Positions 25,572-43,279 of a stretch of DNA of 64,000 nt are shown in pieces (the first letter of the stretch is position 1; the number at the start of each line of letters is the position of its first letter). A model generated the notes under the pieces. It was given only the letters and a program-made list of their open reading frames with translations, was not told where the DNA came from and made no database searches. The DNA comes from a virus, in the IMG/VR virus record IMGVR_UViG_3300028376_000003, positions 64,001 through 128,000 of that record; one strand, given 5' to 3'. The position numbers were made by a program, and so were the translations under genes.

Positions 25572-25655
25572 ATGAATACTTTTACTAACATAGAATATTA
25601 TTATGAAGAATCTGAACGAAAACGCTCGGCTAGTCTTTTGATGTCTATAATGTAA
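25572..25655 (+). CDS. Attenuator leader peptide 1 (MNTFTNIEYYYEESERKRSASLLMSIM)
   Basis: 27-codon ORF with GAA TAT TAT TAT GAA GAA TCT GAA, directly before a terminator and tRNA-Tyr/tRNA-Glu. Confidence 0.8.
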   Translation: MNTFTNIEYYYEESERKRSASLLMSIM

Positions 25656-25672
25656 ATTAAATTATAGTATAA

Positions 25673-25709
25673 AAAAAACCCAGTCTAGTAATATAGACTG
25701 GGTTTTTTG
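25673..25709 (+). terminator. Attenuator terminator 1
   Basis: aaaaaacccagtcta-gtaata-tagactgggtttttt. Confidence 0.9.
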
Positions 25710-25721
25710 TTTTAAAAATAT

Positions 25722-25804
25722 GGGGGTAATATGGCACAGGTAGTCATGTCGGTCTGTAAAACCGATTCCGAAAGGTATTGTGGGTTCGAGTCCCACTACG
25801 CCCA
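25722..25804 (+). tRNA. tRNA-Tyr (GTA)
   Basis: tcggt-CTGTAAA-accga, long variable arm, gtggg-TTCGAGT-cccac; one acceptor mismatch. Confidence 0.85.
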
Positions 25805-25814
25805 CTTAGTACAT

Positions 25815-25887
25815 GCTCCGTTCGTCTAGTGGACTAGGACCCCAGGCTTTCAACTTGGTAACGGGAGTTCAATTCTCCCACGGAGTA
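25815..25887 (+). tRNA. tRNA-Glu (TTC)
   Basis: ccagg-CTTTCAA-cttgg; canonical cloverleaf. Confidence 0.9.
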
Positions 25888-25969
25888 CTAGTTTTAATAT
25901 TGTTTAAAATAGGATTATAATAATATAATGCTTATATTTGCCTATTATTTAATTTTAAAAAGCTTTTAA

Positions 25970-26134
25970 ATGGAAAAAAACACAATACAAGATTTTAAGT
26001 GTGTATATGTTTATAGAACTGGTAAAAAAATACATGAATGTGTATTTAAAGCCTACAATGTTGAGCAAGCTAAGACACATTTTTCGTTTTTTTATCCGAA
26101 AAGGATATTGAAAGAAATTGAATTACAAAAATAA
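25970..26134 (+). CDS. Small hypothetical protein (MEKNTIQDFKCVYVY...)
   Basis: 54 aa ORF read from the sequence, after promoter at 25933. Confidence 0.5.
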   Translation: MEKNTIQDFKCVYVYRTGKKIHECVFKAYNVEQAKTHFSFFYPKRILKEIELQK

Positions 26135-26140
26135 ATTATT

Positions 26141-26359
26141 ATGGTTTTAAAAATAGAGATAGAAGGAATTGGCGAATTCGACATAAAACATGATTTGTTA
26201 CATCGAGGTAATCGACCAAGACTGAAAACTTACCATAAAGGGATATTTAGAGAAGTATCTTTTAATAGTTTTGAAGACTATCTAAATCCTACCTATCAGA
26301 GAGGATTTGATTATGAAGGAACAGAAATACAGATTAAAATTTTAGAAAATACAGATTAA
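26141..26359 (+). CDS. Hypothetical protein
   Basis: 72 aa ORF. Confidence 0.6.
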   Translation: MVLKIEIEGIGEFDIKHDLLHRGNRPRLKTYHKGIFREVSFNSFEDYLNPTYQRGFDYEGTEIQIKILENTD

Positions 26360-26406
26360 TTTAAGAGGGAGAGTAAACTTTTAATATATAGTGTAATATA
26401 ACAATT

Positions 26407-26481
26407 ATGAGAACAATTAATAACATAGCAATAATAGCGATAGGCAAAGGGAAAACTCATTGGCTGGGAATTGTTATGTAA
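26407..26481 (+). CDS. Attenuator leader peptide 2 (MRTINNIAIIAIGKGKTHWLGIVM)
   Basis: 24 codons with ATA GCA ATA ATA GCG ATA GGC AAA GGG, before a terminator and tRNA-Ile(UAU)/Gly/Gly/Ala. Confidence 0.82.
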   Translation: MRTINNIAIIAIGKGKTHWLGIVM

Positions 26482-26504
26482 TTAATTTAATTATAAATTA
26501 TCAT

Positions 26505-26533
26505 AAACCCAGTCAGAAATGACTGGGTTTTTT
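26505..26533 (+). terminator. Attenuator terminator 2
   Basis: aaacccagtca-gaaa-tgactgggtttttt; 5' arm also pairs with tggctggg (26461-26468). Confidence 0.9.
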
Positions 26534-26547
26534 ATTTTATTATAAAT

Positions 26548-26621
26548 TGGTATGTAGCTTAGATGGTAAAAGCACATGGCTTATATCCATGAGATAGTGG
26601 GTTCGATACCCATCATACCAA
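26548..26621 (+). tRNA. tRNA-Ile (TAT)
   Basis: catgg-CTTATAT-ccatg; acceptor tggtatg/catacca. Confidence 0.88.
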
Positions 26622-26629
26622 CAAAATAA

Positions 26630-26703
26630 GCAGGTAACGCATAAGTGATGGTGCACTAGCCTTCCAAGCTAGAATAGAATCGGTTTGATCCCGATTACCT
26701 GCT
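26630..26703 (+). tRNA. tRNA-Gly (TCC)
   Basis: ctagc-CTTCCAA-gctag; U73. Confidence 0.82.
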
Positions 26704-26714
26704 CGATATAAAAT

Positions 26715-26788
26715 GCAAATGTAGCTCAATTGGCTAGAGTGTCTGATTTCCATTCAGAAAGTTGTAGGTTCGAATCCTATCATTTGCT
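26715..26788 (+). tRNA. tRNA-Gly (TCC)
   Basis: tctga-TTTCCAT-tcaga; U73. Confidence 0.88.
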
Positions 26789-26795
26789 CATTAAT

Positions 26796-26873
26796 GGGGG
26801 ATTAGCTCAGTCTGGTCGTAAGCGATAGCTTTGCAAGCTGTGTCATACATCGGTTCAAATCCGATATCCTCCA
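26796..26873 (+). tRNA. tRNA-Ala (TGC)
   Basis: atagc-TTTGCAA-gctgt; G3:U70 identity pair. Confidence 0.88.
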
Positions 26874-27165
26874 CAGCTTAATTAAAAAAAACAATAATTA
26901 TAGAAGATTTGAGTGCGAGATAGATAGAGAGAGGAGTAATTACTAAATTTGCATCAGATGAATTGGAGAAGTTGTCTAAAAATCATCAGGCTAGAAAATA
27001 TCAAAGCTTCACTATAGATAGGTGAGTTGTTGATATTGTGGACATGTCACCGATTTCTAAGCTAACAAATTCAGTAGATGTGATAGTTTATGGTGGTGAT
27101 TCATTAATGGAGATTTCTTAGAAACATATTAATAATATATATATAGAGAAAATGTACATATTATT

Positions 27166-27921
27166 ATGATTATAAGATTTAGAAGTAGAGGAGAAAAAGT
27201 TAAGGATTTACAAAACTTGTTAGGACTAAAACCTGATGGTATATTTGGTCCTAACACTTTGAAAGCTTTGAAGAATTTTCAAAGAGATAATGGATTAAGC
27301 GTAGATGGTATAGTTGGTCCTAATACTTGGTCTGTTTTAGTAAAAAACGATAAGAATAGAATAAGACCAATTTACGATGTTGATCTAAACGAAGAAGATT
27401 CTGTATCTGATCCAGAGTGTATGTTCTGTGTAGAAGATATTGAGGAAACACAACCTTTGTCCCCTAGTACAAGGGAACTTATAAACCTAATAGAATCTAG
27501 TGATATTACTAGGAATATAAAAAGGCTTGTTTTCCATTGTACTGCAACATCTCAAAAAGCTACTGTATCTGCCATTGTGAATTATTGGAAGAATACACTT
27601 GGGTGGCGTTCACCAGGTTATCATATAATTGTTAGGCCAGATGGAACTTGGAATCAACTACTAGACTTTAACAGAGTCTCTAATGGTGTTCGTGGTATCA
27701 ATTCTACTACTATAAATATATCATATATTGGTGGTGTTGACCGAAATGGTAGAGCATTGGATAATAGAACTAAAAAGCAAAAGGATGTCTATGAAACCAT
27801 TTATAGAGCTTTTAAGCATAAATTACCTAGAATAACATTTCATGGACATAATGAATTTTCATCAAAAGCATGTCCATCTTTTAATGTTAAAAATTGGATA
27901 AAGTCTTTAAGAGTAATTTAA
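27166..27921 (+). CDS. Endolysin: peptidoglycan-binding domain plus N-acetylmuramoyl-L-alanine amidase (T7 lysozyme type)
   Basis: DGIFGPNT/DGIVGPNTW repeats; HCTAT, GYH, YIGG, GHNEF, KACPSF. Confidence 0.92.
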   Translation: MIIRFRSRGEKVKDLQNLLGLKPDGIFGPNTLKALKNFQRDNGLSVDGIVGPNTWSVLVKNDKNRIRPIYDVDLNEEDSVSDPECMFCVEDIEETQPLSPSTRELINLIESSDITRNIKRLVFHCTATSQKATVSAIVNYWKNTLGWRSPGYHIIVRPDGTWNQLLDFNRVSNGVRGINSTTINISYIGGVDRNGRALDNRTKKQKDVYETIYRAFKHKLPRITFHGHNEFSSKACPSFNVKNWIKSLRVI

Positions 27922-28049
27922 TTAGTATATATTTGCATAGTAAGAATTCTAAAAGAAAGAAAAATTATAATATTATTTTACTATATATCATGATGTTGCA
28001 TGTTTTTAGATGAATTAACAACACTAATCACTTAATAATACAAATCTAT

Positions 28050-28478
28050 ATGACCACAATTCAAACAAATAATATAATTAACTTTTATTTCAATATTAGC
28101 ACTGAATGTGGTATTGATATATTACATCTATCACCAAGCTATCTTAGAGAAAAGTGGATACTCCATATAGGAACTGATATTGAAAATAATAATATAACCA
28201 AAAGTGTTAAGTTGGATACTTGGACTAAAATATGGGGTGTTACTGATAAAAATACAACATCAATATATTATATAATTCTAGAATTAAATTCAGTTCCACT
28301 AAGGGAAGCTAATATAACGTCTGTAGTTAATAAAATTATTCCTTATATTGATGAAAATAAGATAAACAAAGAAGAATATAATGGTTTACACCCATCAATA
28401 AATAGTTGTAAGGATCAATGGATGATGAAGAAAGAAAACAAAAGATACTTAAATATTCAAATGTTATTGAATGACTGA
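28050..28478 (+). CDS. Hypothetical protein
   Basis: 142 aa ORF. Confidence 0.65.
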   Translation: MTTIQTNNIINFYFNISTECGIDILHLSPSYLREKWILHIGTDIENNNITKSVKLDTWTKIWGVTDKNTTSIYYIILELNSVPLREANITSVVNKIIPYIDENKINKEEYNGLHPSINSCKDQWMMKKENKRYLNIQMLLND

Positions 28479-28501
28479 TATTTATATATAAGAGAAAAAC
28501 A

Positions 28502-28957
28502 ATGAAATTAAGAAAGACTATAGCAACCACAATGAGAGGATATCTTAATGAGAATAATAGTAATGAAAGTCATTTTTTATCTGAAAGTGAAAAATATGGC
28601 TCTTATGAAGGTATTATTCATTCTGATATAGAAAAAGTCAAGAATTAGTTCTCAAAACGAGGTATTGACTACAATTCATATCTTAATCAAATTGAACTAC
28701 CTGTAGCATTTTTAAACAATATAAATGTAGAATTAAAATATAGAGGAAAGGGATATGGTGATGAACTATATTTTGATTTTGAACAGAATTGTTATTATTA
28801 TAACACTAAATGCATAATATTAGAAAGTGATAGTGGCGAATCACAGAAGAAAGGTTTTAATTTGGACAATTGGTATGAAATCTTAGACTATGAGATAATT
28901 GGGGAAGAAAGTGGTAATTCAATTATGAAAAAAAAATTAATTAGTTCACAACGATGA
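28502..28957 (+). pseudogene. GNAT acetyltransferase interrupted by an in-frame TAG at 28646
   Basis: MKLRKTIATTMRGYLNE...KVKN*FSKRG...NINVELKYRGKGYGDELY; frame continuous across the stop. Confidence 0.7.
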
Positions 28958-29018
28958 TGGTGATAATAGTGCTTTACTTAATTCTGATTATGAAATGATA
29001 ATTATTTAAAAATAAATT

Positions 29019-29240
29019 ATGGGACTATACGATACAGTAAAAGTACCTTGCCCTTCATGTGGTGAGAAGAAAGATTTTCAAAGTAAGAGTGGTGATGGTT
29101 TTTTAGAAGTAGTTGATTTAGAAAACTGCCCATATGATATACTAGTAGGCGTAAACAGACATTCACCCCATACTTGTAAGTGTGGAGAAATATTTAAAGT
29201 GGATTTAAATACTAGAAAAAGTGTAAAAACAGAAAAATAG
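29019..29240 (+). CDS. Small Zn-ribbon-like protein
   Basis: MGLYD..CPSCG...FQSK...CKCG. Confidence 0.7.
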   Translation: MGLYDTVKVPCPSCGEKKDFQSKSGDGFLEVVDLENCPYDILVGVNRHSPHTCKCGEIFKVDLNTRKSVKTEK

Positions 29241-29497
29241 ACTATGATAATGTCCCAAATATCTATTAAATAAGGGACTTTAAAAATTAGGTAATTTTAT
29301 ACATTGTTGTGCAGAGTAGGTTATTAATTTAATTATGAGATGAGTAGTATTAATTATATAAAAAATACAACTTATTATCTGTTTGTAAGTATAAGTGTGT
29401 AAGTGCTACTTATGATAAACTTCTAATATCACAAACAATCAATTTTAATAAAAGCATATACTAGAAAATAGAAAATAAAAAATAATAAATTAAATAT

Positions 29498-30733
29498 ATG
29501 AATAACACATCAATTATAGATTCATTTACTGAGCTTAAGTCAGACAAAATGATTAATAAAATAGAGATAATGGAAATCCTAGACTCTGTTTTTAGATTTG
29601 AGTTTAGAAAAAAATATGATACAGATGAAAACTTTGATATAATTCTAAACCCAGATAACGGAGATTTAGAAATATGGCAAAACAAAATCGTTGTACAAGA
29701 TGGCGAGGTTGAAAACCACAATACTGAAATAGAAATTTCAGAAGTTCTTAAGGTGGAGTCAGATTTTGAAATAGGGGAAGAATATCCACAAGAATTCAAA
29801 ATATCAGAATTAGGAAGAAGATCTATATTAAGTTTAAGACAGAATCTAAAGGCTAGAATAAAAGACTACGAAAATAAATCAACAATAGAGAAGTTTGAAG
29901 ATATGATTGGATATATTTTCAATGCCGAAGTCCATCACATAAAAAGAAATATGGTTATATTACTAGATGATGAGGGTATTGAAATTTGTTTACCAAAAGA
30001 TAATCAGATACCTGGTGAGTTTTACAGAAAAGGTGATACAATATCATTTGTGGTAGAAGAAGCTGAAATTAGAAACAATAAGCCATACATTATTGCATCA
30101 AGAACATCAAGTAAGTTTCTAGAAAGAATAATGGAACAAGAAATACCTGAAATATTCGATGGTCTAATAAATATAAAGAACATAGTTAGAGTACCTGGTA
30201 TTAAAGCTAAGGTAGCAGTGGAAACATATGATGATAGAATTGATCCTGTTGGAACTTGTGTTGGTAGTAGAGGAAGTCGAATAATGGCAGTTACTAGAGA
30301 GCTAAATGGTGAGAGTATAGATATCATAAGCTACACAAATAATATGGATTTATATATAACTAGGTCGTTAAAACCAGCCGTTGTTAAATTTATAAAGGTA
30401 GAAGATGGTAAAGCTGACGTTCATTTAAATGGTGAAGATATTGGTAAGGCTATTGGTAAGAAAGGTTCTAATATAAGATTAACTAGCTTACTTACTGGTC
30501 TAGAAATAAATCTTATAAATGATGAGCAAGCTACAGAGGAAGATATAGATCTTATGGAATTTTCTGATGAAGTTGATTTATGGGTAATAAATGAATTTAA
30601 AAAAGCTGGTATAGATACTGCTAAATCATTACTATCTTATGGTTTTAGTGAACTTGTAAATATGACAGATTTAGAGGATGTGACTATTGAGAAGATAATA
30701 AAAATAATCAAACAAGAATTTGTTGATAGTTAA
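29498..30733 (+). CDS. nusA: Transcription termination/antitermination factor NusA
   Basis: NTD, S1 and KH domains; EIPEIFDG, IDPVGTCVGSRGSRI, AIGKKGSNIRL. Confidence 0.95.
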   Translation: MNNTSIIDSFTELKSDKMINKIEIMEILDSVFRFEFRKKYDTDENFDIILNPDNGDLEIWQNKIVVQDGEVENHNTEIEISEVLKVESDFEIGEEYPQEFKISELGRRSILSLRQNLKARIKDYENKSTIEKFEDMIGYIFNAEVHHIKRNMVILLDDEGIEICLPKDNQIPGEFYRKGDTISFVVEEAEIRNNKPYIIASRTSSKFLERIMEQEIPEIFDGLINIKNIVRVPGIKAKVAVETYDDRIDPVGTCVGSRGSRIMAVTRELNGESIDIISYTNNMDLYITRSLKPAVVKFIKVEDGKADVHLNGEDIGKAIGKKGSNIRLTSLLTGLEINLINDEQATEEDIDLMEFSDEVDLWVINEFKKAGIDTAKSLLSYGFSELVNMTDLEDVTIEKIIKIIKQEFVDS

Positions 30734-30742
30734 AACAAAATA

Positions 30743-30970
30743 ATGTCAAATAGAAACTATAAAATAGATAAGGAAATCGAGGTAACACTTAAAGTTAAAG
30801 TAAAGATTAATTCTTGCAATGACTATAATAGGTTGAACGAATTACAAATAGAAAATAATGTATCTGATTTTAAAAATGATATTAAAGAACATCTGCTAGA
30901 TAAGCTAAGAAATAGCTATCAAGAAGAAGTTACAATAGGTATTGATTTTTGGGATTATGAAGTAGATTAA
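30743..30970 (+). CDS. Hypothetical protein
   Basis: 75 aa ORF. Confidence 0.6.
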   Translation: MSNRNYKIDKEIEVTLKVKVKINSCNDYNRLNELQIENNVSDFKNDIKEHLLDKLRNSYQEEVTIGIDFWDYEVD

Positions 30971-31029
30971 TTAAATACCATAAAATACTTGTATAATATT
31001 TTTTATTTGTATATTTGTAAAAAAATAAT

Positions 31030-31299
31030 ATGAAAACTTTTAAGAAATCATTTATTATAATAGGACTTGGCGTACTTAACATACTACATGCTAGCCTTCA
31101 TATATTTCAATTTGTTCAATCTTTTATGCTTGTAAAGGCATCTATAGAACTACAAGACACATCAACAAATCACAGTGGTTTATTTTCAGATTTACTACAC
31201 AGTCCATATTTTACAATAGTTTGGGCATTAGTAGGCATCTTGACCTTATACATCGGTATCAAGGATTTTATTCATCATAAAAAATGTAAAAATGGGTAG
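31030..31299 (+). CDS. Small membrane protein (two TM helices)
   Basis: Two hydrophobic segments; promoter at 31010. Confidence 0.65.
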   Translation: MKTFKKSFIIIGLGVLNILHASLHIFQFVQSFMLVKASIELQDTSTNHSGLFSDLLHSPYFTIVWALVGILTLYIGIKDFIHHKKCKNG

Positions 31300-32197
31300 T
31301 TTTAATATAATATGTTCAATATCTAATACAGTCATAAGTGACGGCGATAGAGCAAGTATTCAGATATTAGTCCCTGGTGGAAGTGAAAATTTCAATTCAC
31401 ATAAGAACATAATTGTATCAGAAAGTGGTACACAAGAGTTCTTCTCACCATTTGGGTTTCCAATAAATGGTCGATATGATAGCTATGGAAGATTAAGACA
31501 TATAGAAAATGACATAAATGTAGAAATGTTAGAAAAATTCTTTAACATAAATATATATGAATTACTTAATCTAATACATTCTAGTAGTAGAACTTATGAT
31601 GAAGAGGTTAAAAACACAGACATAATTGACAATTTGTTCATATCTTTTTTTAGAACAGAAGTCATTGACTACATAGACAATGGAAGCCTAGATATAAATA
31701 TTGACAACCCCGAAGAATATACTAGAGGTGCTTACATAAAAAGTATTTTAGATGGTATTGATGATTATAACATAACAAACATATCAGAAAGAATATCATA
31801 TATTGAAAGTATGGCAGAAGCTGATATTACAGAAGAAATTTCGAAAGAGTTTTTTGATTTAATAAGAAAACAAACTACAAGAAAAAAGACATATATTCAA
31901 TCATTATGGCAATATAATATGTTTGAATTGCTACCAATTGATTTAATATTTAAAGACTATATAATTAAACAATATAATCTTATTTCAACGATGACAAATG
32001 AATTGAAAGTATTATTGAGACCAAGCTTATATGGATCACAAGAAGGTGATGATTTATATAGATACAAATTTAATAAAGAAATAAATAATCTAATCATTAA
32101 TGATTTAGAATCAGAATCAGAATGGTTAGATGGTGAAGAAAAATCCATTATAAAGACACATAATCGATCTGTCAAACTAGACAAATTGTATTCATAG
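31292..32197 (+). CDS. Hypothetical protein
   Basis: 301 aa; MGSFNIICSISN...PINGRYDSYGR; ends NRSVKLDKLYS. Confidence 0.75.
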   Translation: MGSFNIICSISNTVISDGDRASIQILVPGGSENFNSHKNIIVSESGTQEFFSPFGFPINGRYDSYGRLRHIENDINVEMLEKFFNINIYELLNLIHSSSRTYDEEVKNTDIIDNLFISFFRTEVIDYIDNGSLDINIDNPEEYTRGAYIKSILDGIDDYNITNISERISYIESMAEADITEEISKEFFDLIRKQTTRKKTYIQSLWQYNMFELLPIDLIFKDYIIKQYNLISTMTNELKVLLRPSLYGSQEGDDLYRYKFNKEINNLIINDLESESEWLDGEEKSIIKTHNRSVKLDKLYS

Positions 32198-32461
32198 ATG
32201 AAATTTAATAAAGAAGATAGCCTTATTGGTATGCATTTTGTATACATGTCTGGATATGATAAGAATCCTAAATTTGATAAGATAATAAAACTCGTTGAAC
32301 CAGTAGGTTTAACTATACAAGAATTTATAAATAAAGCTTATTATCCTATAGATTCATATGTAATTTCACAAAATGGCATAAGGTACGAAATGAGAGAGAT
32401 AAAGCTAACTCCAATTAGTGAAATTAGAAAAAACAGATTAAAAAAATTAGGAATTAAATAG
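32198..32461 (+). CDS. Hypothetical protein
   Basis: 87 aa; ends IRKNRLKKLGIK. Confidence 0.65.
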   Translation: MKFNKEDSLIGMHFVYMSGYDKNPKFDKIIKLVEPVGLTIQEFINKAYYPIDSYVISQNGIRYEMREIKLTPISEIRKNRLKKLGIK

Positions 32462-32477
32462 ATATATGTAATTAGTT

Positions 32478-32915
32478 ATGGCAGAACTTAAAAAGAAAAG
32501 AAAACGTTATAGATTAAATACATTTTTCTACATTGAAGTATATGATATAGCAGCACTTAGGAGTAAAAAACTAAATAAAGTAATGGGATTAGATAATAAC
32601 ATAAGACCCACCTATTTTAGTACACTAAGTAGAAATACTTCTATAAAGAATATATATCTTTCTAGCTTTTGGAAGAAGAAACAAAGTGCTATCAACCAAA
32701 AGGCTGCTATGAAAGAAATGTGTGATAAAAAGAATCTAACTATGGAAATAATCGAAATTAATAGATTAGAGTTTATAAAATTAATACCGCTAAAAGTACC
32801 AGAGTGTTCAAAATGGGATATGGGATTATACATAATTAATATAGGCATTGTGCGTGATGAGAAAGCATATATGGAAACATTAAAGTGTAGGGAAATAGAC
32901 AACATTAATGAATAA
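32478..32915 (+). CDS. Hypothetical protein (possible paralogue of 32908)
   Basis: FYIEVY..LRSKKL..NIYLSSFW versus YYIEMY..RRLRI..NIYFALFF in the neighbour. Confidence 0.65.
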   Translation: MAELKKKRKRYRLNTFFYIEVYDIAALRSKKLNKVMGLDNNIRPTYFSTLSRNTSIKNIYLSSFWKKKQSAINQKAAMKEMCDKKNLTMEIIEINRLEFIKLIPLKVPECSKWDMGLYIINIGIVRDEKAYMETLKCREIDNINE

Positions 32916-33324: not shown

Positions 33325-33334
33325 TTAATACACT

Positions 33335-35822: not shown

Positions 35823-35918
35823 AGTTGTCATATATATTAAACAAATATAACCTTTTTATTTGATATATACAACAGGGGAGATATATACTTTTATATATAT
35901 AATAAAATATAAAAAATC

Positions 35919-36077: not shown

Positions 36078-36187
36078 ATTTAATAAAATATTTCATAAAT
36101 ACTTTAATAATTCGAAATATATTCAGTATGTTTGTATCATATAATTTACTACAGATAATAGTATTATGAACAAACAAAGAAGTTATT

Positions 36188-36424
36188 ATGAAAAATCTTA
36201 AAAAATGGTTTAGAAATTTATCAATTACTAACCTTGCTCACTACTACTGGCTAAAAATAAGAGAAGAATCAAAAGATAGACATGGTGAAAAATTATGTTA
36301 TTGTGGACACACTAATAAATGTAGTTGTGATGACCCAGATAAACAAACTTTTAAAGATTCTGTAAAAAGAGGAACTATAATTATATTTGATAAAAAGAAC
36401 GGTTGGAAAACTTCCAAAAAATAA
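36188..36424 (+). CDS. Hypothetical protein
   Basis: 78 aa; CYCGHTNKCSC. Confidence 0.6.
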   Translation: MKNLKKWFRNLSITNLAHYYWLKIREESKDRHGEKLCYCGHTNKCSCDDPDKQTFKDSVKRGTIIIFDKKNGWKTSKK

Positions 36425-36443
36425 ATGTAATAAATATAAAACT

Positions 36444-36653
36444 ATGGAATCTAATAAAAAAGAAACTAATGGGATATTGTCAGTAGTTCTAAATGTTTTC
36501 CTAGTAGCTACAGAAAATAGGCTAATAAGCTTCGCTATCAAAAATAAAGAATTAAGCCCTGAGCAGACTAGTTATATAGAGTCTGAATACGGCAAAATAG
36601 AATCTATCGAAGATGGTAGTAGTGGGTTCACTAAAACTGTTATATACATTTAA
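36444..36653 (+). CDS. Hypothetical protein
   Basis: ORF 36387..36653; probable ATG start at MESNKK. Confidence 0.5.
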   Translation: MESNKKETNGILSVVLNVFLVATENRLISFAIKNKELSPEQTSYIESEYGKIESIEDGSSGFTKTVIYI

Positions 36654-36664
36654 TAAAATGAACT

Positions 36665-36859
36665 ATGTTAATTAGAAAAATGTATACCTTGTACATAAAT
36701 ACAACACTTAGAACTGCATACTTTGGTAATCTAAAGTTTGGATGTAGAATAGGTGGTGCAAAGTTTGGTAAAGTAATTGATTGTAATTTATCTGATTTGA
36801 AACACAACCTAAGAATACTAGCAGAAGAAAATTATTTAATTAATAAACGCACGTATTAA
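36665..36859 (+). CDS. Hypothetical protein
   Basis: 64 aa ORF in a tandem run. Confidence 0.5.
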   Translation: MLIRKMYTLYINTTLRTAYFGNLKFGCRIGGAKFGKVIDCNLSDLKHNLRILAEENYLINKRTY

Positions 36860-36860
36860 A

Positions 36861-37208
36861 ATGAAAATAACAAAAGGAACATTCAAATATACTGGTATTA
36901 ACGATATAGATATTGACTTAGTCACAGACAAGTGGAATCATTTATGGATGCTTGCTGAGTGGAAAGTAGACAATTCTTGGAAAATAGTCAAATATATTAG
37001 AAAAGACTCTCAAAATACCGAGATAAAGCTAACGATATCATGTGAACAAGCAACTGAACTTATTAAAAACCTTGGCTTAATTAATATTAATACTGGGTTT
37101 CAAAGTGGTTACTCTTGGAGGACTAAAAAGGATATGGTGTATTTAGAGAACTGGAGATTGGCAAGACATAAGAAATTACAGACCAAATTAATAACAAACA
37201 ACTTTTAA
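36861..37208 (+). CDS. Hypothetical protein
   Basis: 115 aa ORF. Confidence 0.6.
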   Translation: MKITKGTFKYTGINDIDIDLVTDKWNHLWMLAEWKVDNSWKIVKYIRKDSQNTEIKLTISCEQATELIKNLGLININTGFQSGYSWRTKKDMVYLENWRLARHKKLQTKLITNNF

Positions 37209-37211
37209 ATT

Positions 37212-37478
37212 ATGAAAGATACATTTAGATACTTCATCAGAAAGAACTTCTCTGAGATTGGCGAAATAAGCAATGAGGATATTGATGAAATCGGAATTGA
37301 ATTTCACAAGTACTTGGATAGCAAATTAAATGATGACCAAAAGGCTAAAATACTACCAAAAAGTGCGATTGATGTAATAATGAATAGCGACCACCCACTT
37401 AAAACAAACGGATTTGAGCCAGCATATATGCTACATTTTACACAATGGACAAAGGAACAAAGTGAATCGCAAGACTAG
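37212..37478 (+). CDS. Hypothetical protein
   Basis: 88 aa ORF. Confidence 0.6.
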   Translation: MKDTFRYFIRKNFSEIGEISNEDIDEIGIEFHKYLDSKLNDDQKAKILPKSAIDVIMNSDHPLKTNGFEPAYMLHFTQWTKEQSESQD

Positions 37479-37543
37479 TTAAATGTTTTTATAAATTTTT
37501 TGGCTATTAGCTTCTATATTTACACAATAATAATAATAAAACA

Positions 37544-37765
37544 ATGAATAAAGACAATAATTCTATTATAGATACTAATGTACCTCTTTTTAAGTATATC
37601 GAGATTAAGGATTATGACAATGATAGTGTTGTTAAGCGACTAGATGTAAGCGATAAATCCGATAGGCGTATAGATACTATCGAAAGTGGGATTGATATAA
37701 ACTTAAACCATGACCAATACTATACGTTTAGTCATGATAGTGAAGTTGAATTAGAACTCATATGA
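37544..37765 (+). CDS. Hypothetical protein
   Basis: 73 aa ORF. Confidence 0.6.
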   Translation: MNKDNNSIIDTNVPLFKYIEIKDYDNDSVVKRLDVSDKSDRRIDTIESGIDINLNHDQYYTFSHDSEVELELI

Positions 37766-37794
37766 AAATAAATTTAAATCTTTTTAAAAAACAC

Positions 37795-37905
37795 TTGTGA
37801 GAAACAAATATTAGTTATATATTTGCACAGAACCTAAAATAATTTAAACTTTTAGTAAAAAAAAGAATATAAATAACCAAAGGAAGAAATAAAATTTAAT
37901 ATATA
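37795..37905 (+). promoter_or_regulatory. Stacked promoter cassette (TTG-N20-TATATTTG; AAACTTTT-N14-TATAAA; TTAATATATA)
   Basis: Motifs at 37795-37825, 37846-37873, 37896-37905; near-duplicate at 42504-42613. Confidence 0.65.
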
Positions 37906-37911
37906 ATAGTG

Positions 37912-38031
37912 ATGAAAAATTTAAACCTAAATACAAATAGAAACTTAACGCTCAATGTGGTGAATATTATGTTATGTAATAGACCATCTAGGGGTTCTAG
38001 TGTATTTAATAAATTTCATCTTATGACATAG
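37912..38031 (+). CDS. Attenuator leader peptide 3 (MKNLNLNTNRNLTLNVVNIMLCNRPSRGSSVFNKFHLMT)
   Basis: Codons 3-24 encode only N/L/T/R/V/I/M/C, the amino acids of the 11 downstream tRNAs. Confidence 0.82.
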   Translation: MKNLNLNTNRNLTLNVVNIMLCNRPSRGSSVFNKFHLMT

Positions 38032-38054
38032 TGAAATAAAAAATACAAATAACT

Positions 38055-38090
38055 AAAACCCCTAGAAATGAAAATTCTAGGGGTTTTTTT
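38055..38090 (+). terminator. Attenuator terminator 3
   Basis: aaaacccctagaa-atgaaaa-ttctaggggttttttt; 5' arm also pairs perfectly with tctaggggtt (37987-37996). Confidence 0.9.
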
Positions 38091-38097
38091 GTTTTAT

Positions 38098-38182
38098 GCT
38101 AGTGTGGTGGAATGGTAGACACGAGGGATTCAAAATCCTTTAATCAGAAATGATTATATGAGTTCAAATCTCATCATTAGTA
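38098..38182 (+). tRNA. tRNA-Leu (CAA)
   Basis: aggga-TTCAAAA-tcctt, long variable arm. Confidence 0.88.
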
Positions 38183-38194
38183 CATATATTACAA

Positions 38195-38268
38195 TCCTCG
38201 TTAGCTCAGTGGTCAGAAGCTCTCGTCTGTTAAACGAAAGGTCGGTGGTTCGAATCCACCACGAGGAG
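38195..38268 (+). tRNA. tRNA-Asn (GTT)
   Basis: ctcgt-CTGTTAA-acgaa; G73. Confidence 0.9.
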
Positions 38269-38276
38269 CAAATAAT

Positions 38277-38358
38277 CGGCATATACCAGCCCAAGCTGAT
38301 ACCTTGGAGAACTGTAGTTGGTAAGTTGAAAACGTAGGTTCGAGTCCTACTGTGCCGA
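38277..38358 (+). tRNA. Atypical tRNA-Ile (GAT): no D-arm, 26-nt variable region
   Basis: cggcata/tgtgccg acceptor, 7-nt linker, ccaag-CTGATAC-cttgg, gtagg-TTCGAGT-cctac. Confidence 0.7.
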
Positions 38359-38372
38359 CTTTTATGACACTT

Positions 38373-38457
38373 GTCGGAGTGGTGGAATGGCAGACACGCT
38401 GGGTTTAAGCTCCAGTGGGCAGTGATGTCCGTGAGGGTTCGAGTCCCTTCTCCGATA
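38373..38457 (+). tRNA. tRNA-Leu (TAA)
   Basis: ctggg-TTTAAGC-tccag, long variable arm. Confidence 0.88.
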
Positions 38458-38466
38458 CGAATAAAT

Positions 38467-38556
38467 GCCAGTGTGGTGAAATTGGATGAAACACGCTAGT
38501 CTTAGGAACTAGTACCCAAGAGGTAAACATTGTCGGTTCGAGTCCGACCACTGGTA
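38467..38556 (+). tRNA. tRNA-Leu (TAG)
   Basis: ctagt-CTTAGGA-actag. Confidence 0.88.
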
Positions 38557-38566
38557 CAAAATAAAT

Positions 38567-38647
38567 GCCTTAGTAGTCCCGATTGTCTTCTAAACAATTA
38601 AGGGTAATTGGAAGCTGAAAATATAGGTTCGAGTCCTATCTAGGGTA
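38567..38647 (+). tRNA. Atypical tRNA-Arg (TCT): no D-arm, 24-nt variable region
   Basis: gccttag/ctagggt acceptor, 8-nt linker, attgt-CTTCTAA-acaat, atagg-TTCGAGT-cctat. Confidence 0.7.
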
Positions 38648-38656
38648 CAAATAAAA

Positions 38657-38730
38657 AGTTCTGTAATTCAGGGGTTCAGAATGCTTCCCTTACAAGGAAG
38701 AAGTCGTTGGTTCGAATCCAACCAGAACTA
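38657..38730 (+). tRNA. tRNA-Val (TAC)
   Basis: cttcc-CTTACAA-ggaag. Confidence 0.9.
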
Positions 38731-38736
38731 CAAAAT

Positions 38737-38808
38737 GTACCTATGACCGAGTGATTTAGGTAGGTGGCTGCAACCCATCGTACGGGGGTTTGAATCCCTC
38801 TAGGTACT
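38737..38808 (+). tRNA. tRNA-Cys (GCA)
   Basis: ggtgg-CTGCAAC-ccatc; U73. Confidence 0.88.
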
Positions 38809-38815
38809 CTAATAT

Positions 38816-38888
38816 GCTGACATAGCTCAATTGGTAGAGCATTTGATTTGTAATCAAAAGGTTGTGGGTTCGAAGCCCTCTGTCAGCT
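38816..38888 (+). tRNA. tRNA-Thr (TGT)
   Basis: tttga-TTTGTAA-tcaaa. Confidence 0.9.
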
Positions 38889-38898
38889 CTGAAAAAAT

Positions 38899-38988
38899 GC
38901 ACTAGTGGCGAAGTGGATGAAACGCATCAGACTTAAAATCTGATACCCTTTGAGGTGAACAACGTGGGTTCAAATCCCACCTGGTGTA
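38899..38988 (+). tRNA. tRNA-Leu (TAA), second copy
   Basis: tcaga-CTTAAAA-tctga, long variable arm. Confidence 0.88.
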
Positions 38989-38992
38989 CTAA

Positions 38993-39078
38993 ATCGCTAT
39001 GAACAGATGTGGTAATTGTGCTTGGCTCATATCCAAGTTAGAGAAATCTTATTGTTGGTTCAAGTCCAACTAGCGGTA
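38993..39078 (+). tRNA. tRNA-Met (CAT), elongator or Ile2, with long variable arm
   Basis: cttgg-CTCATAT-ccaag; acceptor atcgcta/tagcggt. Confidence 0.75.
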
Positions 39079-39080
39079 CA

Positions 39081-39120
39081 AAAAAAGAGGGGATATAATT
39101 AATTATATCCCCTCTTTTTT
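39081..39120. terminator. Bidirectional terminator
   Basis: aaaaaagaggggatataattaattatatcccctctttttt, a perfect palindrome. Confidence 0.88.
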
Positions 39121-39132
39121 ATATTATTTGTT

Positions 39133-39564
39133 TTATTTATTTTTAAGACTTTCTATATCATCCCTTATCTCATCTATATCATCTAAAGATATATCATCCA
39201 AATCTTTACCAGCATCACCAGTATTATCTGTTACTACAGGAATAACATCTTCTATCCCTTTATCTATTTCCTTAGCAATGTAATCATCCCCTGCAATACT
39301 CTCTCTTTCTATTTGTAAACAGAACTGTGCTAATACTGCTAAATCATCATTTTTCTGTGCTAAATCGAATACTTTGCTATTAAGTTCATATTTTGACATA
39401 CCTCTAAATTTCTTTCTAGTATAGTAGTCATAGAAATCTTGCTCTTCTCTAGACATAACATTAGATGGTTTTCTATCAATACCAAATATCTCTGTCTTTT
39501 TAGCTTTTGCAGTTACTGCTTCGCTCACTTTTTTATTGTTAAAGTCTTTATATTTTTTTATCAT
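39133..39564 (-). CDS. Probable capsid-internal protein
   Basis: MIKKYKDFNNKKVSE N-terminus; TTAATATATA upstream. Confidence 0.6.
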   Translation of the reverse strand: MIKKYKDFNNKKVSEAVTAKAKKTEIFGIDRKPSNVMSREEQDFYDYYTRKKFRGMSKYELNSKVFDLAQKNDDLAVLAQFCLQIERESIAGDDYIAKEIDKGIEDVIPVVTDNTGDAGKDLDDISLDDIDEIRDDIESLKNK

Positions 39565-39582
39565 ACTCTTATATATTAATTT

Positions 39583-40218
39583 TTATTTACCATTTATTTC
39601 TTCAAACTCTTTTTCTAAATAAAGATAAATGTATTTTTTATACCTTTTCTTAATATCATCACTCACCGCCCTTGATATTCCCATCCATAGACCAATACTT
39701 TTTAATTTAGAAAATGCATCTTTTATATCATTTGGATTTCTTTCCATTATTAGGTCTGTTATAGATTGTGAAAAAGCCATTACCTCATCTTTATTCGAAA
39801 AATAAGCCTTTTGATCTGAAATGTTTCCTAAAAATTCAAAATTTAAATCAGCTGGTCGTCTCAAACCTTGTTTTAAATGTATATTTTCATGCTTTAATAC
39901 GTGGATAGCAAAACTGATATCATTACTCTCAAGATATCTTACATTATTAGCAAGAACCAATCTAGGCTTTTTAGTAACTGGGTTTAATAAACCAAATACT
40001 TTCATACCATTTGGTGGTGCATCTTCCCTCATTTTATCAGTTGGTAATTCATCATAGAATGTTCTGTAATAAACAACCTCTATATCATTTTTTGCACCAA
40101 TTCTTTGTAATTCATCAACACTAATACTCCACTCAGCCTCGACCTCTTTTATAAACTTTTCTAAATTATCAGACTTCCAATCTATTATTGCCTCATTAAA
40201 CTTTTTTAAATGTTTCAT
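39583..40218 (-). CDS. Probable capsid-internal zincin-motif (HExxH) protein
   Basis: MKHLKKFNE N-terminus; HENIHLKQ...YFSNKDEVMAF. Confidence 0.65.
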   Translation of the reverse strand: MKHLKKFNEAIIDWKSDNLEKFIKEVEAEWSISVDELQRIGAKNDIEVVYYRTFYDELPTDKMREDAPPNGMKVFGLLNPVTKKPRLVLANNVRYLESNDISFAIHVLKHENIHLKQGLRRPADLNFEFLGNISDQKAYFSNKDEVMAFSQSITDLIMERNPNDIKDAFSKLKSIGLWMGISRAVSDDIKKRYKKYIYLYLEKEFEEINGK

Positions 40219-40234
40219 TATTATTCTTTTTTTT

Positions 40235-42460
40235 TTAGAAATTTTCGTTTAATGGAAAATTCTTTAGATAAATTTTATCATTGGCATTATCACCAAATAT
40301 TAAATATTTAGAGTCATCACCCAATATATATTGATTCAATACTTTATTATGAGCTTCCTCTGGGATAACATCACTAAAAAGTCTTATGTTAGTAACCTTC
40401 ATATCAGATGCTAATATCTTAGGATTTTTATCAATATTATACTGAATAGGTTCTATGTCTTGTTTATTATAATACTCTTTTCTCAAAATTGTACTATTAA
40501 GCATTTTTGCATCATCTTCTATATCTACATTTCTCTTATATATATAATTTTCAATATACCTTTGACGTTGGTTTAAATTTAGCACATAACAATACCAAGT
40601 ATCTTCCTCTAATGCATCACTTTCCCCATCATTTAACTCAAATATATATTCTTCTTCATTCATAGTAACTGTAATGCTATCATTCTTTAGACTAGACTTC
40701 CATCCTTTATTAATCCCATTGTCATAAACGTCCATAAATTTATAAACTTCATCTTTTATGTAGTTATTTATACTAAACCAAACTTGTAATGATATGTTGT
40801 CAGATACATCAAGTATAGAATTAAAGTTCTTGTATTGAACTGCCAAACCATTATATTCTACTGTTGATAAATCATAACAATATTTAGATATTATGGTTGT
40901 TGAGTTTTCAATAAGTTCTTTATCAACTTCAGAAAAATACTCAAGTCTAATAGGATCTCTAGATAAAGGTTGTTGTTCCTTCTTATTAGCAATTGACTTC
41001 TTATCTTGTTCTATCTCCTTTCCAAATAGTTCATCAATAGTAGTATTCTTTGTTAACTCACTAATGCTATTAGAAATTTCTGGAATATCTGTCTGAACAT
41101 TTGATTTTTGAGAATATTTTTTGAGAATAAGTTTATAATAAACAGCCGCATTATTAAAATTTCTAAACTGTTGAGCATGGTCAACTTGATACATTCTATT
41201 AACTTGACAAAAATGTATAAAATCTTCTTTAGAAGGTCTTCTCTGGACACCAAACATTTCCTTAAATTGTTTCTTTGTTATATGTGCTTCCATTGAATCA
41301 AATAATCCTAAATCGAATATGTTCATCTTAATCTGTGAGTCTGGAAAATTATTACCATCAATAGATATTTTTAAATCTCCCTCACACACAACATTATATA
41401 ATTGATATTCATTAAGTGTGTGGTCTTGACCATTGGCATCTGGATCAGTTGCATAATAAGTTACTTTATGTCCTAGTACTTGTTCAGAGTCTGTACTTAA
41501 TTTTTCATATAGTTGAGTAGCTTGTGTTTGTTCATAAGGATTATATAACTGAGCCTTGTCTGTATCTGTCATTGGTTTAAATGCATCATTCTCACCTTCA
41601 CAGTTGTTACCTGTTGTGTTTAAATTATCATTCATTATATACTTACCTTCACTGTTTATATAGCCTATCTGGTTGGATTTACAACATTCTCTTATCCCAA
41701 ATAGATTACTCTTTTTATAATCTTCCTTAACATTTTGAAAATCTCCTACTAAATTTATGTCTTGAAACCTAGACACTGATCCCGATTTGTTATCAATAAG
41801 ATATTCTATTTCAAAGAAACGTATAGGGTTTATCCTTTTGGTTGTTATATTTTCTTTAGTCAATGGTTCCCATTCAGTCCAAGTTCTAGAGTTATCTTGT
41901 GAGAATCTATACTTTATACTTATGTCATCTAAACTAGTTATATTAATGATTTGTATATCTTCTAATTTAAAAACTTTATATATGAAAGGTGCTTTTACTA
42001 TCTTAGAATCACCTGGCTCTATATAAAATGCTTGTTCACCATTGAATTGTATTTCTTGTCTATCTATAATACCTTCTAATTTATATTCTAGTATTCTTAT
42101 ACTACCTATTTCAGAAGTTCCCTTTCTCACCCATTTAATTTCAAGGTACATACTATCTAGTGTATCAACAACTGGGAAGTTGGTTATATTAATATTTAAG
42201 TCTAACCACTCAGACCATGTGTTACCATCTCTGGAAACTCTATAATATTGTAAGAGAAATCTATCTTGTTTAAGACCTAAACTATCGTATGTAAATCTTT
42301 TGAACTTTTCCACATTATCTAACTTATCAAAAGATAATATGTATTCATCATTGATAGAATTTAGATAAGGAGTTTCATCTTCAACACCAGTTGCCATCAC
42401 GTCATATTCATCTGATATAGTTATTATTCCTTTCTCAAAATCTGAGTTTATATTTACCAT
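40235..42460 (-). CDS. Neck/head-completion protein with T4 gp14-like core and extra domains
   Basis: LYNPY...GHKVTYY...DHTLNEY...FKEMFG..RPSKEDFIHF..NRMYQV; LamG-like C-terminus. Confidence 0.55.
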   Translation of the reverse strand: MVNINSDFEKGIITISDEYDVMATGVEDETPYLNSINDEYILSFDKLDNVEKFKRFTYDSLGLKQDRFLLQYYRVSRDGNTWSEWLDLNINITNFPVVDTLDSMYLEIKWVRKGTSEIGSIRILEYKLEGIIDRQEIQFNGEQAFYIEPGDSKIVKAPFIYKVFKLEDIQIINITSLDDISIKYRFSQDNSRTWTEWEPLTKENITTKRINPIRFFEIEYLIDNKSGSVSRFQDINLVGDFQNVKEDYKKSNLFGIRECCKSNQIGYINSEGKYIMNDNLNTTGNNCEGENDAFKPMTDTDKAQLYNPYEQTQATQLYEKLSTDSEQVLGHKVTYYATDPDANGQDHTLNEYQLYNVVCEGDLKISIDGNNFPDSQIKMNIFDLGLFDSMEAHITKKQFKEMFGVQRRPSKEDFIHFCQVNRMYQVDHAQQFRNFNNAAVYYKLILKKYSQKSNVQTDIPEISNSISELTKNTTIDELFGKEIEQDKKSIANKKEQQPLSRDPIRLEYFSEVDKELIENSTTIISKYCYDLSTVEYNGLAVQYKNFNSILDVSDNISLQVWFSINNYIKDEVYKFMDVYDNGINKGWKSSLKNDSITVTMNEEEYIFELNDGESDALEEDTWYCYVLNLNQRQRYIENYIYKRNVDIEDDAKMLNSTILRKEYYNKQDIEPIQYNIDKNPKILASDMKVTNIRLFSDVIPEEAHNKVLNQYILGDDSKYLIFGDNANDKIYLKNFPLNENF

Positions 42461-42503
42461 AACTCTATATATTAAAAAAGATTATTTTAATTTAAAAAAA
42501 ACC

Positions 42504-42613
42504 TTGTATAAACCATTTATTTATATTATATTTGCATAGAAATAATATAATTCTAAACTTTTATAAAAAAAAGTCTATAAATAACCATAGAGAGAAATAA
42601 AAGTTAATATATA
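42504..42613 (+). promoter_or_regulatory. Stacked promoter cassette (TTG-N20-TATATTTG; AAACTTTT-N13-TATAAA; TTAATATATA)
   Basis: Motifs at 42504-42534, 42555-42581, 42604-42613. Confidence 0.65.
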
Positions 42614-42620
42614 AAACATA

Positions 42621-42725
42621 ATGAAAAATTTAAACTTAAACATAGTAGTTAACCCTCAACCCCAAGTTGATATCGATCAGGATTCTGATACGAAAGGTGC
42701 TAACTATGTTTTAAATTTAAGTTGA
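42621..42725 (+). CDS. Attenuator leader peptide 4 (MKNLNLNIVVNPQPQVDIDQDSDTKGANYVLNLS)
   Basis: PQPQVDIDQDSD block before a terminator and (Asp-Gln-Pro)x2 tRNAs. Confidence 0.82.
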   Translation: MKNLNLNIVVNPQPQVDIDQDSDTKGANYVLNLS

Positions 42726-42743
42726 TATTTAAATAATAAAAAC

Positions 42744-42783
42744 AAAAACTCGGTTAGTCTTTTAGATTAACCGAGTTTTTTTT
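42744..42783 (+). terminator. Attenuator terminator 4
   Basis: aaaaactcggttagtct-ttt-agattaaccgagtttttttt. Confidence 0.9.
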
Positions 42784-42791
42784 GTTTATAT

Positions 42792-42864
42792 AGCTCTGAG
42801 GTCAAATGGTTAAGATGTACGTCTGTCTCACGTAACGGAGTGGGTTCGATTCCCATCAGAGCTG
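42792..42864 (+). tRNA. tRNA-Asp (GTC)
   Basis: tacgt-CTGTCTC-acgta; G73. Confidence 0.85.
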
Positions 42865-42876
42865 CTAATATTAAAT

Positions 42877-42950
42877 TGCCCCATAGTGTAATTGGCTAAC
42901 ACATCTGGTTTTGGTCCAGAAGATTGCAGGTTCGAACCCTGCTGGGGTAA
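42877..42950 (+). tRNA. tRNA-Gln (TTG)
   Basis: tctgg-TTTTGGT-ccaga. Confidence 0.9.
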
Positions 42951-42959
42951 CAAGTTAAT

Positions 42960-43033
42960 CGAGAAGTGACTAAGGTTATAAGCACGGGTGCATTGGAGGC
43001 ATCAGTTAGCAGGTTCGATTCCTGTCTTCTCGA
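42960..43033 (+). tRNA. tRNA-Pro (TGG)
   Basis: ggtgc-ATTGGAG-gcatc; C1:G72, A73; weak D-arm. Confidence 0.78.
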
Positions 43034-43045
43034 CAAATTTTTAAT

Positions 43046-43117
43046 AGTCCATTAGTGTAAAGGTTATCATTTCCGACTGTCTCTCGGAAGATAGGGGTTC
43101 GAATCCCCTATGGACTG
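43046..43117 (+). tRNA. tRNA-Asp (GTC), second copy
   Basis: tccga-CTGTCTC-tcgga; G73. Confidence 0.85.
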
Positions 43118-43123
43118 CAAAAA

Positions 43124-43197
43124 TGCTCTATAGTGTAATTGGTTAACACGTCTGGCTTTGGTCCAGGAGATTGTAGGTTCGAACCCTACTGGGGCAA
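43124..43197 (+). tRNA. tRNA-Gln (TTG), second copy
   Basis: tctgg-CTTTGGT-ccagg. Confidence 0.9.
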
Positions 43198-43206
43198 CAA
43201 GTATAG

Positions 43207-43279
43207 CGAGGGTGTAGTGTAATCTGGTAACACACGATGTTTGGGACATCGAATTGCTGTTCGAATCGGACATCTTCGA
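43207..43279 (+). tRNA. tRNA-Pro (TGG), second copy; 8-bp acceptor and short T-stem
   Basis: cgatg-TTTGGGA-catcg; cgagggtg/catcttcg. Confidence 0.72.

Follow-up and report, generated by a model that had tools for sequence, protein, structure and literature searches.

Whether the transfer RNA (tRNA) genes of a phage can be controlled set by set is the question raised by bases 64001-128000 of a 141.5 kb viral contig (IMG/VR record IMGVR_UViG_3300028376_000003; ~29% G+C) from an uncultured phage. Throughout this 64,000-nucleotide stretch, called the window here, four tRNA blocks share one layout: promoter-like motifs, an open reading frame (ORF) of 24-39 codons, a strong hairpin with a T-run, and then the tRNA genes. 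A first-pass annotation made from the letters alone had described this arrangement, which we recovered in all four units, and had read it as leader-peptide attenuation. Our sequence-level analysis favors the same reading. The units are likely to be ribosome-mediated (leader-peptide) transcription attenuators of the trp/his/ilv type that gate phage tRNA operons, and the predictions testable at this level were borne out, for the antiterminator in leaders 2 and 3 of the window.

Leader codons and downstream tRNAs

ARAGORN called 20 tRNAs in the window, all on the + strand and grouped as four blocks plus a leading tRNA-Met. Rfam added three more, a Gly(UCC), an Arg(UCU), and a Pro(UGG) (Table 1). 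We compared the residues of each leader with the amino acids of the block that follows it, with amino-acid frequencies from the 88 long ORFs of the contig as background. Residues matching the leader's own block numbered 7 of 26 in leader 1 (3.0 expected; binomial p = 0.026), 11 of 23 in leader 2 (4.0 expected; p = 7e-4), 24 of 38 in leader 3 (11.4 expected; p = 2.5e-5), and 9 of 33 in leader 4 (4.1 expected; p = 0.017). Combined, these values give Fisher p = 2.4e-8 for own-block amino-acid enrichment. When z-scores were arranged as a 4 x 4 matrix, the highest score of each leader and of each block fell on its true partner, and the true leader-block pairing was the best of the 24 permutations. 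The claim of the first-pass annotation that leader codons match their own tRNA cluster in four of four cases is therefore upheld.

The choice among synonymous codons follows the anticodons as well. Arginine codons are AGR in 6/6 cases before blocks with Arg(UCU/CCU) and CGN in 6/9 before blocks with Arg(ACG/UCG), CGN codons being otherwise rare in this AT-rich genome. Isoleucine is encoded by ATA in 16/24 cases before Ile(UAU) and by ATY in 5/6 before Ile(GAU). Because codon choice tracks the anticodons of the block, decoding, and not peptide composition, appears to be the selected property. The ATG-to-stop frame stays open in all leader homologues examined, and the start signals of the leaders are gene-like, with the same TWATATATA-to-ATG context as in ordinary genes. 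A natural variant points in the same direction as codon choice. Contigs from two salt-lake runs carry a 1-nucleotide deletion at 26452 that puts leader 2 out of frame beyond codon 16; the ORF is still open, with its stop one codon later, so that the peptide tail is changed while neither the regulatory codons nor the RNA segment is affected.

The closest public relatives are the metagenomic huge-phage genomes LR745206.1 (635 kb) and LR756502.1 (642 kb), and LR756501.1 (735 kb), LR756504.1 (636 kb), and LR756500.1 (462 kb) are farther removed. Lake and salt-lake metagenomes contain the same DNA as the window. Al-Shayeb et al. 2020 (PMC7162821) report genomes in this size range, assign their five genomes >634 kb to the "Mahaphage" clade, and predict Bacteroidetes hosts. 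We extended the set of homologues by seven IMG/VR contigs, retrieved with a DNA pattern from leader 3; the IMG/VR contigs L012-L014, retrieved via a neighboring 741-amino-acid protein, have no tRNAs near the gene for that protein.

All four block types of the window recur in LR745206 and LR756502, where their leaders are homologous as well. A test was set beforehand on blocks absent from the window's contig, which should have leaders matching those blocks. In both genomes, a His/Phe/Trp/Lys block is preceded by a leader rich in H, K, and F with a single W, and the leader before an Arg(ACG)/Ser(UGA) block consists mostly of S and R. Both also have a second small leader inside the Pro/Asp/Gln region, with six to seven Gln codons ahead of the Gln tRNAs. 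The tRNAs of LR756501 and LR756504 are grouped differently, and the leaders track the new groupings, for example Leu only; Arg/Ile/Met; Glu/Ala/Ile/Val/Gly; Tyr/Gln/Lys; Leu/Ser/Cys; and, over 5 kb, Arg/Thr/Val/Ala/Gly/Pro. LR756500 has one codon-matched leader, which lies ahead of a His/Glu/Val/Trp block.

The true pairing was the single best permutation in LR756502 (1/5040), LR756501 (1/24), and LR756504 (1/720). For LR745206, 4/20000 random pairings equaled the true one, with one false-positive ORF included. One short ORF, which in L006 precedes a solo tRNA-Met and has 0/17 residues matched, is likely a gene end with an ordinary terminator; this false positive was retained in the statistics. 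Leader-block concordance also holds in the seven IMG/VR contigs retrieved with the leader-3 pattern. Concordance at homologous loci, the absence of which the first-pass annotation would have taken as a refutation, was thus strongly positive against shuffled pairings in five other genomes.

Predicted terminators and competing pairing

The hairpins between the leader ORFs and the tRNA genes are predicted to be intrinsic terminators. Their stems are perfect, GC-rich, and 11-14 bp long, they are followed by T-runs, and the first tRNA begins 12-18 nucleotides downstream, a gap too short for a separate promoter. Such hairpins are scarce, with ~10 on the + strand of the entire contig (141.5 kb), four of which are the hairpins of the tRNA units.

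For each leader, we scored the duplex that its 3' part can form with the terminator 5' arm and compared it with 500 shuffles. The complementarity was significant for leader 2 (-14.4 kcal/mol, p = 0.002; z = -3.4) and leader 3 (-16.7 kcal/mol, p = 0.002; z = -5.4). The first-pass annotation had claimed it for leaders 2-4; in leader 4 it is present but does not exceed that of shuffles, as discussed below. Extended antiterminator helices could be drawn for leaders 1 and 4 and were rejected, as they were not better than shuffles. Among the LR745206 homologues, leader 1 reached p = 0.02 and leader 4 reached -10.6 kcal/mol with p = 0.054. Family-wide, 19/30 leaders had p < 0.05 (Fisher p = 4e-21, all pipeline hits). 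The pairing segment always starts right after the matched codons, and the share of matched residues drops from 54% in the part of the leader ahead of this segment to 22% in the part beyond it (p = 2e-18).

Nascent-RNA folding with a 30-nucleotide ribosome mask was used to model the effect of ribosome position. For leader 2, no antiterminator formed without a ribosome, an 8-bp antiterminator formed with the ribosome at codons 1-14, and almost none formed with the ribosome from codon 15 to the stop. In these models, leader 2 folding is textbook attenuator behavior. Leader 3 formed a 10-bp antiterminator for stalls at codons 1-21 that was lost at codons 22-32. In the full-length minimum-energy folds of leaders 2 and 3, the region of the regulatory codons pairs with the antiterminator segment. 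In this ribosome-masked folding, a check that the first-pass annotation had pointed to, leaders 1 and 4 showed no discrimination by ribosome position.

Covariation was assessed on an alignment of ten homologues of leader 3. The terminator helix had 99% of cells paired and five compensated pairs. The antiterminator helix had 90% of cells paired and three compensated pairs, compared with 27-59% when the partner columns were slid. Three distinct stem sequences occur among the leader-3 homologues, each with a matching copy of the 3' arm in its leader, and homologue L049 has a wholly different terminator stem together with a matching leader segment.

Proposed mechanism and alternatives

If the units are attenuators, transcription would start at host-type (TAnnTTTG) and/or phage-type (TWATATATA) elements, and a ribosome would translate the short leader. 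Slow decoding of the codons read by the downstream tRNAs would keep the RNA segment 3' of those codons free to pair with the terminator 5' arm, and RNA polymerase would read through into the tRNA genes. Fast decoding would let the ribosome cover the segment, or let the segment pair upstream, and the terminator would form and stop transcription. Leader translation, stall-responsive read-through, and the sign of the response are thus predictions drawn from sequence. The tRNAs made are themselves the decoders, so that each unit would be a negative-feedback loop on its own tRNA supply, with one separate loop per tRNA set. The tRNA-Met before leader 1, which is not gated by a terminator, fits this scheme, since every leader needs initiation; the order of tRNA-Met and then leader 1 recurs in LR745206 and LR756502.

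We infer that the quantity sensed is the decoding rate. Decoding could be slowed by host tRNA decay after shut-off, by depletion of tRNA or its cleavage, as in tRNA-cleaving defenses, by starvation, or by the demand of late genes; starvation, anticodon nucleases, and Cas13 are the candidate triggers proposed in the first-pass annotation.

Several observations weigh against this reading. No leader was detectable at many solo tRNAs, at the inner blocks of long arrays, or at most tRNAs of LR756500, and the homologous leaders of close relatives are not independent observations. In the comparison with 500 shuffles, the complementarity of leader 4 was no better than that of shuffled sequences (-7.8 kcal/mol, p = 0.4), and that of leader 1 was weak and not significant (-4.4 kcal/mol), as the first-pass annotation had implied by naming leaders 2-4 only. 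The leader 3 antiterminator also forms without a ribosome or with a ribosome at the stop codon in equilibrium folds of truncated RNA, so that efficient termination would have to rest on kinetics or on upstream (1:2) pairing. Extra tRNA would be no help under true amino-acid starvation, which makes the useful signal uncertain.

Some of these points would suit constitutive hairpins, acting as insulators or as 3'-end stabilizers of the leader RNA after an RNase P cut, with ORFs that are translated for other reasons (small peptides or a translational ramp) and exert no control over read-through. Leaders 1 and 4 are without a significant antiterminator, and RNA upstream of an RNase P site would be shielded by a hairpin that stops just short of the cut. 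We nevertheless regard this explanation as unlikely. It does not account for leader composition tracking the tRNA set in six genomes, for matched codons preceding the arm-complementary segment, or for the covariation of segment and stem, and the peptide tail is not kept in the natural frameshift variant.

It is similarly improbable that the leaders sense decoding but act post-transcriptionally (through RNA cleavage, processing, or precursor stability) or via Rho access. Codon concordance alone would fit any stalling-based sensor, and leader 3 does not switch cleanly between two states in equilibrium folds, but canonical T-run terminators and an arm-specific, covarying complementarity are what a terminator/antiterminator switch predicts.

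Very little speaks for an untranslated leader RNA that binds tRNAs through codon-anticodon contacts in the manner of a T-box. The leader codons are complementary to the anticodons of the downstream tRNAs; in every homologue, however, these codons share one reading frame that opens with an ATG and closes with a stop, the start context is that of ordinary genes, and the frame is open even after the natural frameshift. An Rfam scan of positions 25000-44000 found no T-box (RF00230) and no His, Thr, Leu, Trp, or other leader family at E <= 1. Chance resemblance of short ORFs in AT-rich DNA to tRNA sets, to which the moderate significance of single leaders (p = 0.026 for leader 1 and p = 0.017 for leader 4) might lend some color, is effectively refuted by the combined statistics, the permutation tests, and the matching leaders at blocks absent from the window. 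Leader-peptide attenuation thus remains the reading that we favor.

Genomic setting and relation to known systems

The positions of the elements of each unit are collected in Table 1.

Table 1. Elements of the four leader-tRNA units (window coordinates; terminators and antiterminator segments are predictions)
Feature	Position	Strand	Evidence or remark
TATATTTG box, head of unit 1	25414..25421	+	
TWATATATA motif directly before tRNA-Met (unit 1)	25454..25462	+	
tRNA-Met(CAU), initiator-like	25479..25552	+	ARAGORN, Rfam; upstream of leader 1, no terminator gating
Leader 1, 27 codons, central run EYYYEE.E in TAT and GAA codons	25572..25655	+	7/26 matched
Terminator 1, 12-bp perfect stem and T-run	25676..25708 (hairpin 25676-25705)	+	-18.1 kcal/mol
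Block 1: tRNA-Tyr(GUA), tRNA-Glu(UUC)	25722..25888	+	ARAGORN
TATATTTG box, head of unit 2	25933..25940	+	
TWATATATA motif 17 nt before leader 2	26382..26390	+	
Leader 2, 24 codons, run IAIIAIG.G with four ATA codons	26407..26481	+	11/23 matched
Antiterminator segment, leader 2, pairs with terminator arm 26505-26515	26459..26468	+	-14.4 kcal/mol
Terminator 2, 11-bp perfect stem and T-run	26505..26536 (hairpin 26505-26530)	+	Folding
Block 2: Ile(UAU), Gly(UCC) at 26630-26703, Gly(UCC), Ala(UGC)	26548..26874	+	ARAGORN, Rfam (Gly at 26630-26703 added by Rfam)
TATATTTG box, head of unit 3	37818..37825	+	
TWATATATA motif 7 nt before leader 3	37897..37905	+	
Leader 3, 39 codons; codons 3-24 only N, L, T, R, V, I, M, C	37912..38031	+	24/38 matched
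Antiterminator segment, leader 3 (copy of terminator 3' arm), 10 bp with 38056-38067	37985..37996	+	-16.7 kcal/mol
Terminator 3, 12-bp perfect stem and T-run	38056..38092 (hairpin 38056-38086)	+	Folding, covariation
Array 3, first half: Leu(CAA), Asn, [Ile(GAU)-like 38277-38360], Leu(UAA), Leu(UAG)	38098..39079 (whole array)	+	ARAGORN, Rfam
Array 3, second half: Arg(UCU) at 38567-38647, Val, Cys, Thr, Leu(UAA), Met(CAU)	within 38098..39079	+	ARAGORN, Rfam (Arg added by Rfam)
Two-way terminator ending array 3	39085..39116	both directions	Hairpin scan
TATATTTG box, head of unit 4	42527..42534	+	
TWATATATA motif 8 nt before leader 4	42605..42613	+	
Leader 4, 34 codons, central run PQPQ.D.DQD.D	42621..42725	+	9/33 matched
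Candidate weak antiterminator segment, leader 4	42693..42709	+	Not above shuffles
Terminator 4, 14-bp perfect stem and T-run	42747..42785 (hairpin 42747-42777)	+	Folding
Block 4: Asp, Gln, Pro(UGG) at 42960-43033, Asp, Gln, Pro(UGG)	42792..43280	+	ARAGORN, Rfam (Pro at 42960-43033 added by Rfam)

Two kinds of promoter-like motif stand ahead of the leaders. The TATATTTG box at the head of each unit is one that we take to be the Bacteroidota-type -7 element TAnnTTTG, after the Bacteroidota sigma-A consensus. The TWATATATA motif also lies 8-25 nucleotides ahead of many ordinary gene starts in the contig, and since leaders and ordinary genes have it in common, it appears to be a general signal for expression in this phage, likely a phage promoter or an element of the 5' untranslated region. 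A sigma-70 family factor (regions 2 and 4) encoded at 20437-21042 (+) of the window is a candidate reader of this motif. Two small ORFs of 54 and 72 amino acids, at 25970-26134 and 26141-26359 (+), lie between the TATATTTG box of unit 2 and leader 2, so that operon 2 may be cotranscribed with protein genes; the 72-amino-acid ORF has no Pfam match.

The tRNA arrays show some unusual members. The Arg(UCU) tRNA of array 3 is atypical, with a D-arm cut to 3 nucleotides and a 21-nucleotide variable arm (Rfam, 39 bits). The first-pass annotation had also counted an Ile(GAU) tRNA in this array. An acceptor stem, a T-arm, and a GAU anticodon loop can be seen there by eye, but neither ARAGORN nor Rfam called the element. 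Among the salt-lake contigs, one strain has 72 other letters instead of tRNA-Asn (38209-38276), and one contig is without the first tRNA-Leu(UAA) (38365-38459). These swaps and losses indicate that the tRNA content of the array turns over among close strains.

Other features were noted in the arrays of the relatives. tRNAs with a CUA anticodon (amber-suppressor type; labeled Pyl by ARAGORN) occur in LR756501 (L025, 690585-690737) and LR756500 (L043). They hint at TAG recoding in these two genomes, and no leader was detected at either. An ORF with a GIY-YIG-like N-terminus between tRNAs of the Ile/Gly/Ala array in LR756502 (L002 12180-12810) is probably an inserted homing endonuclease.

Several genes of the window concern transcription, translation, or RNA. 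A NusA homologue (NusA_N 5e-23, KH_5 4e-24) is encoded at 29498-30733 (+), between tRNA operons 2 and 3. As NusA promotes hairpin pausing and intrinsic termination, a phage NusA could tune the attenuators. The only other copy among the five relatives lies in LR756504 (304692-305927), 2.6 kb upstream of a His/Phe leader-tRNA locus; we rejected NusA as a required factor, because its absence from 4/5 related attenuator-bearing genomes means that it is not essential.

A protein with an HD_4 domain (RelA/SpoT-type hydrolase, 1.7e-16) at 35280-35831 (-) may be a small alarmone hydrolase with a bearing on the stringent control of tRNA synthesis. Immediately after tRNA operon 4 come a cREC_REC "cyclic-phosphate processing receiver" domain (1.8e-18; 43866-44246, +) and an AAA_33/KTI12-like P-loop kinase (45297-45815, +), a pair that suggests RNA repair. 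The NusA homologue, the hydrolase, the sigma factor, the cREC protein, and the kinase fit a theme of translation and RNA repair, a circumstantial link, and the NusA homologue, the hydrolase, and the RNA-repair-like genes near the arrays might tune the switch. The window also encodes a ClpB-like double AAA+ protein (48026-50167, +) and a Cas3-like HD nuclease/helicase (53158-55407, -).

The nearest parallels among known attenuators are the ilvGMEDA leader (Ile/Leu/Val codons) and the thr leader (Thr/Ile). Like the phage units, these have a short leader with more than one codon type, an intrinsic terminator, and the 5' half of the antiterminator just after the regulatory codons, and they are read through when decoding is slow. 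The phage units differ in that they would regulate tRNAs and not biosynthetic enzymes, cover up to eight amino acids per leader, and are phage-borne. The his leader, with its seven His codons, and the pheA and trp leaders have a homopolymeric run before the terminator, for which the Gln-run leaders of LR745206 and LR756502 are the analogue. There, too, the phage output would be the decoding tRNA, and the loop would close on the supply of tRNA, not of amino acid. The pheST attenuator (pheM leader) is similar in applying leader-peptide attenuation to a component of the translation apparatus, although its target is phenylalanyl-tRNA synthetase, whereas the phage target would be tRNA genes. T-box riboswitches resemble the proposed units in sensing the status of tRNA of a single specificity and switching between terminator and antiterminator, but they bind uncharged tRNA directly, are untranslated, and were not detected here.

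Clustered tRNA genes are also found in T4-like phages, mycobacteriophages, and huge phages, where their supposed role is to serve phage codon usage or to stand in for host tRNAs that have been depleted. We know of no description of codon-sensing control for phage tRNA arrays in general. In all leader-peptide attenuators known to us, the regulated genes are those of amino-acid biosynthesis or aminoacyl-tRNA synthetases; since the regulated genes here are tRNAs, these units would be unlike any classical attenuator regulon, with a mechanism that is otherwise alike. The E. coli tRNA-Phe gene pheV was considered as a possible precedent with a Phe-rich leader and rejected, because its 105-nucleotide upstream region holds only the promoter, with no leader ORF or attenuator. 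The first-pass annotation knew of no account of leader-peptide attenuation of tRNA genes, and our full-text literature searches agree in having found no publication on attenuation of tRNA genes, although most subscription journals lie outside their coverage and absence is not proof. The words "attenuat" and "leader" are absent from the text of the huge-phage paper (PMC7162821).

As a tentative and broader proposal, which we put forward with considerable reserve, the huge phages of Bacteroidota may possess a modular, genome-wide "tRNA demand meter". It would consist of one codon-matched attenuator per tRNA operon, cover all 20 amino acids in complete genomes, and replace exactly those host tRNAs that run short in the course of infection through host shut-off, through anticodon-nuclease or other tRNA-targeting defenses, or through the AT-rich codon demand of the phage itself.

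Codon-matched leaders of this kind would be compact, programmable, multi-input sensors of decoding speed and possible parts for synthetic biology, and the leader rule helps to annotate small ORFs adjoining tRNA arrays. If the attenuators act as proposed, leader-peptide attenuation would extend to RNA genes and to viruses. Phage tRNA genes, usually treated as passively expressed cargo, would come under set-by-set control that depends on the infected cell's translational state, and each leader would be a list of the codons that the phage monitors. The debated question of whether these tRNAs compensate for codon usage or replace host tRNAs that have been depleted or cleaved would then become directly testable.

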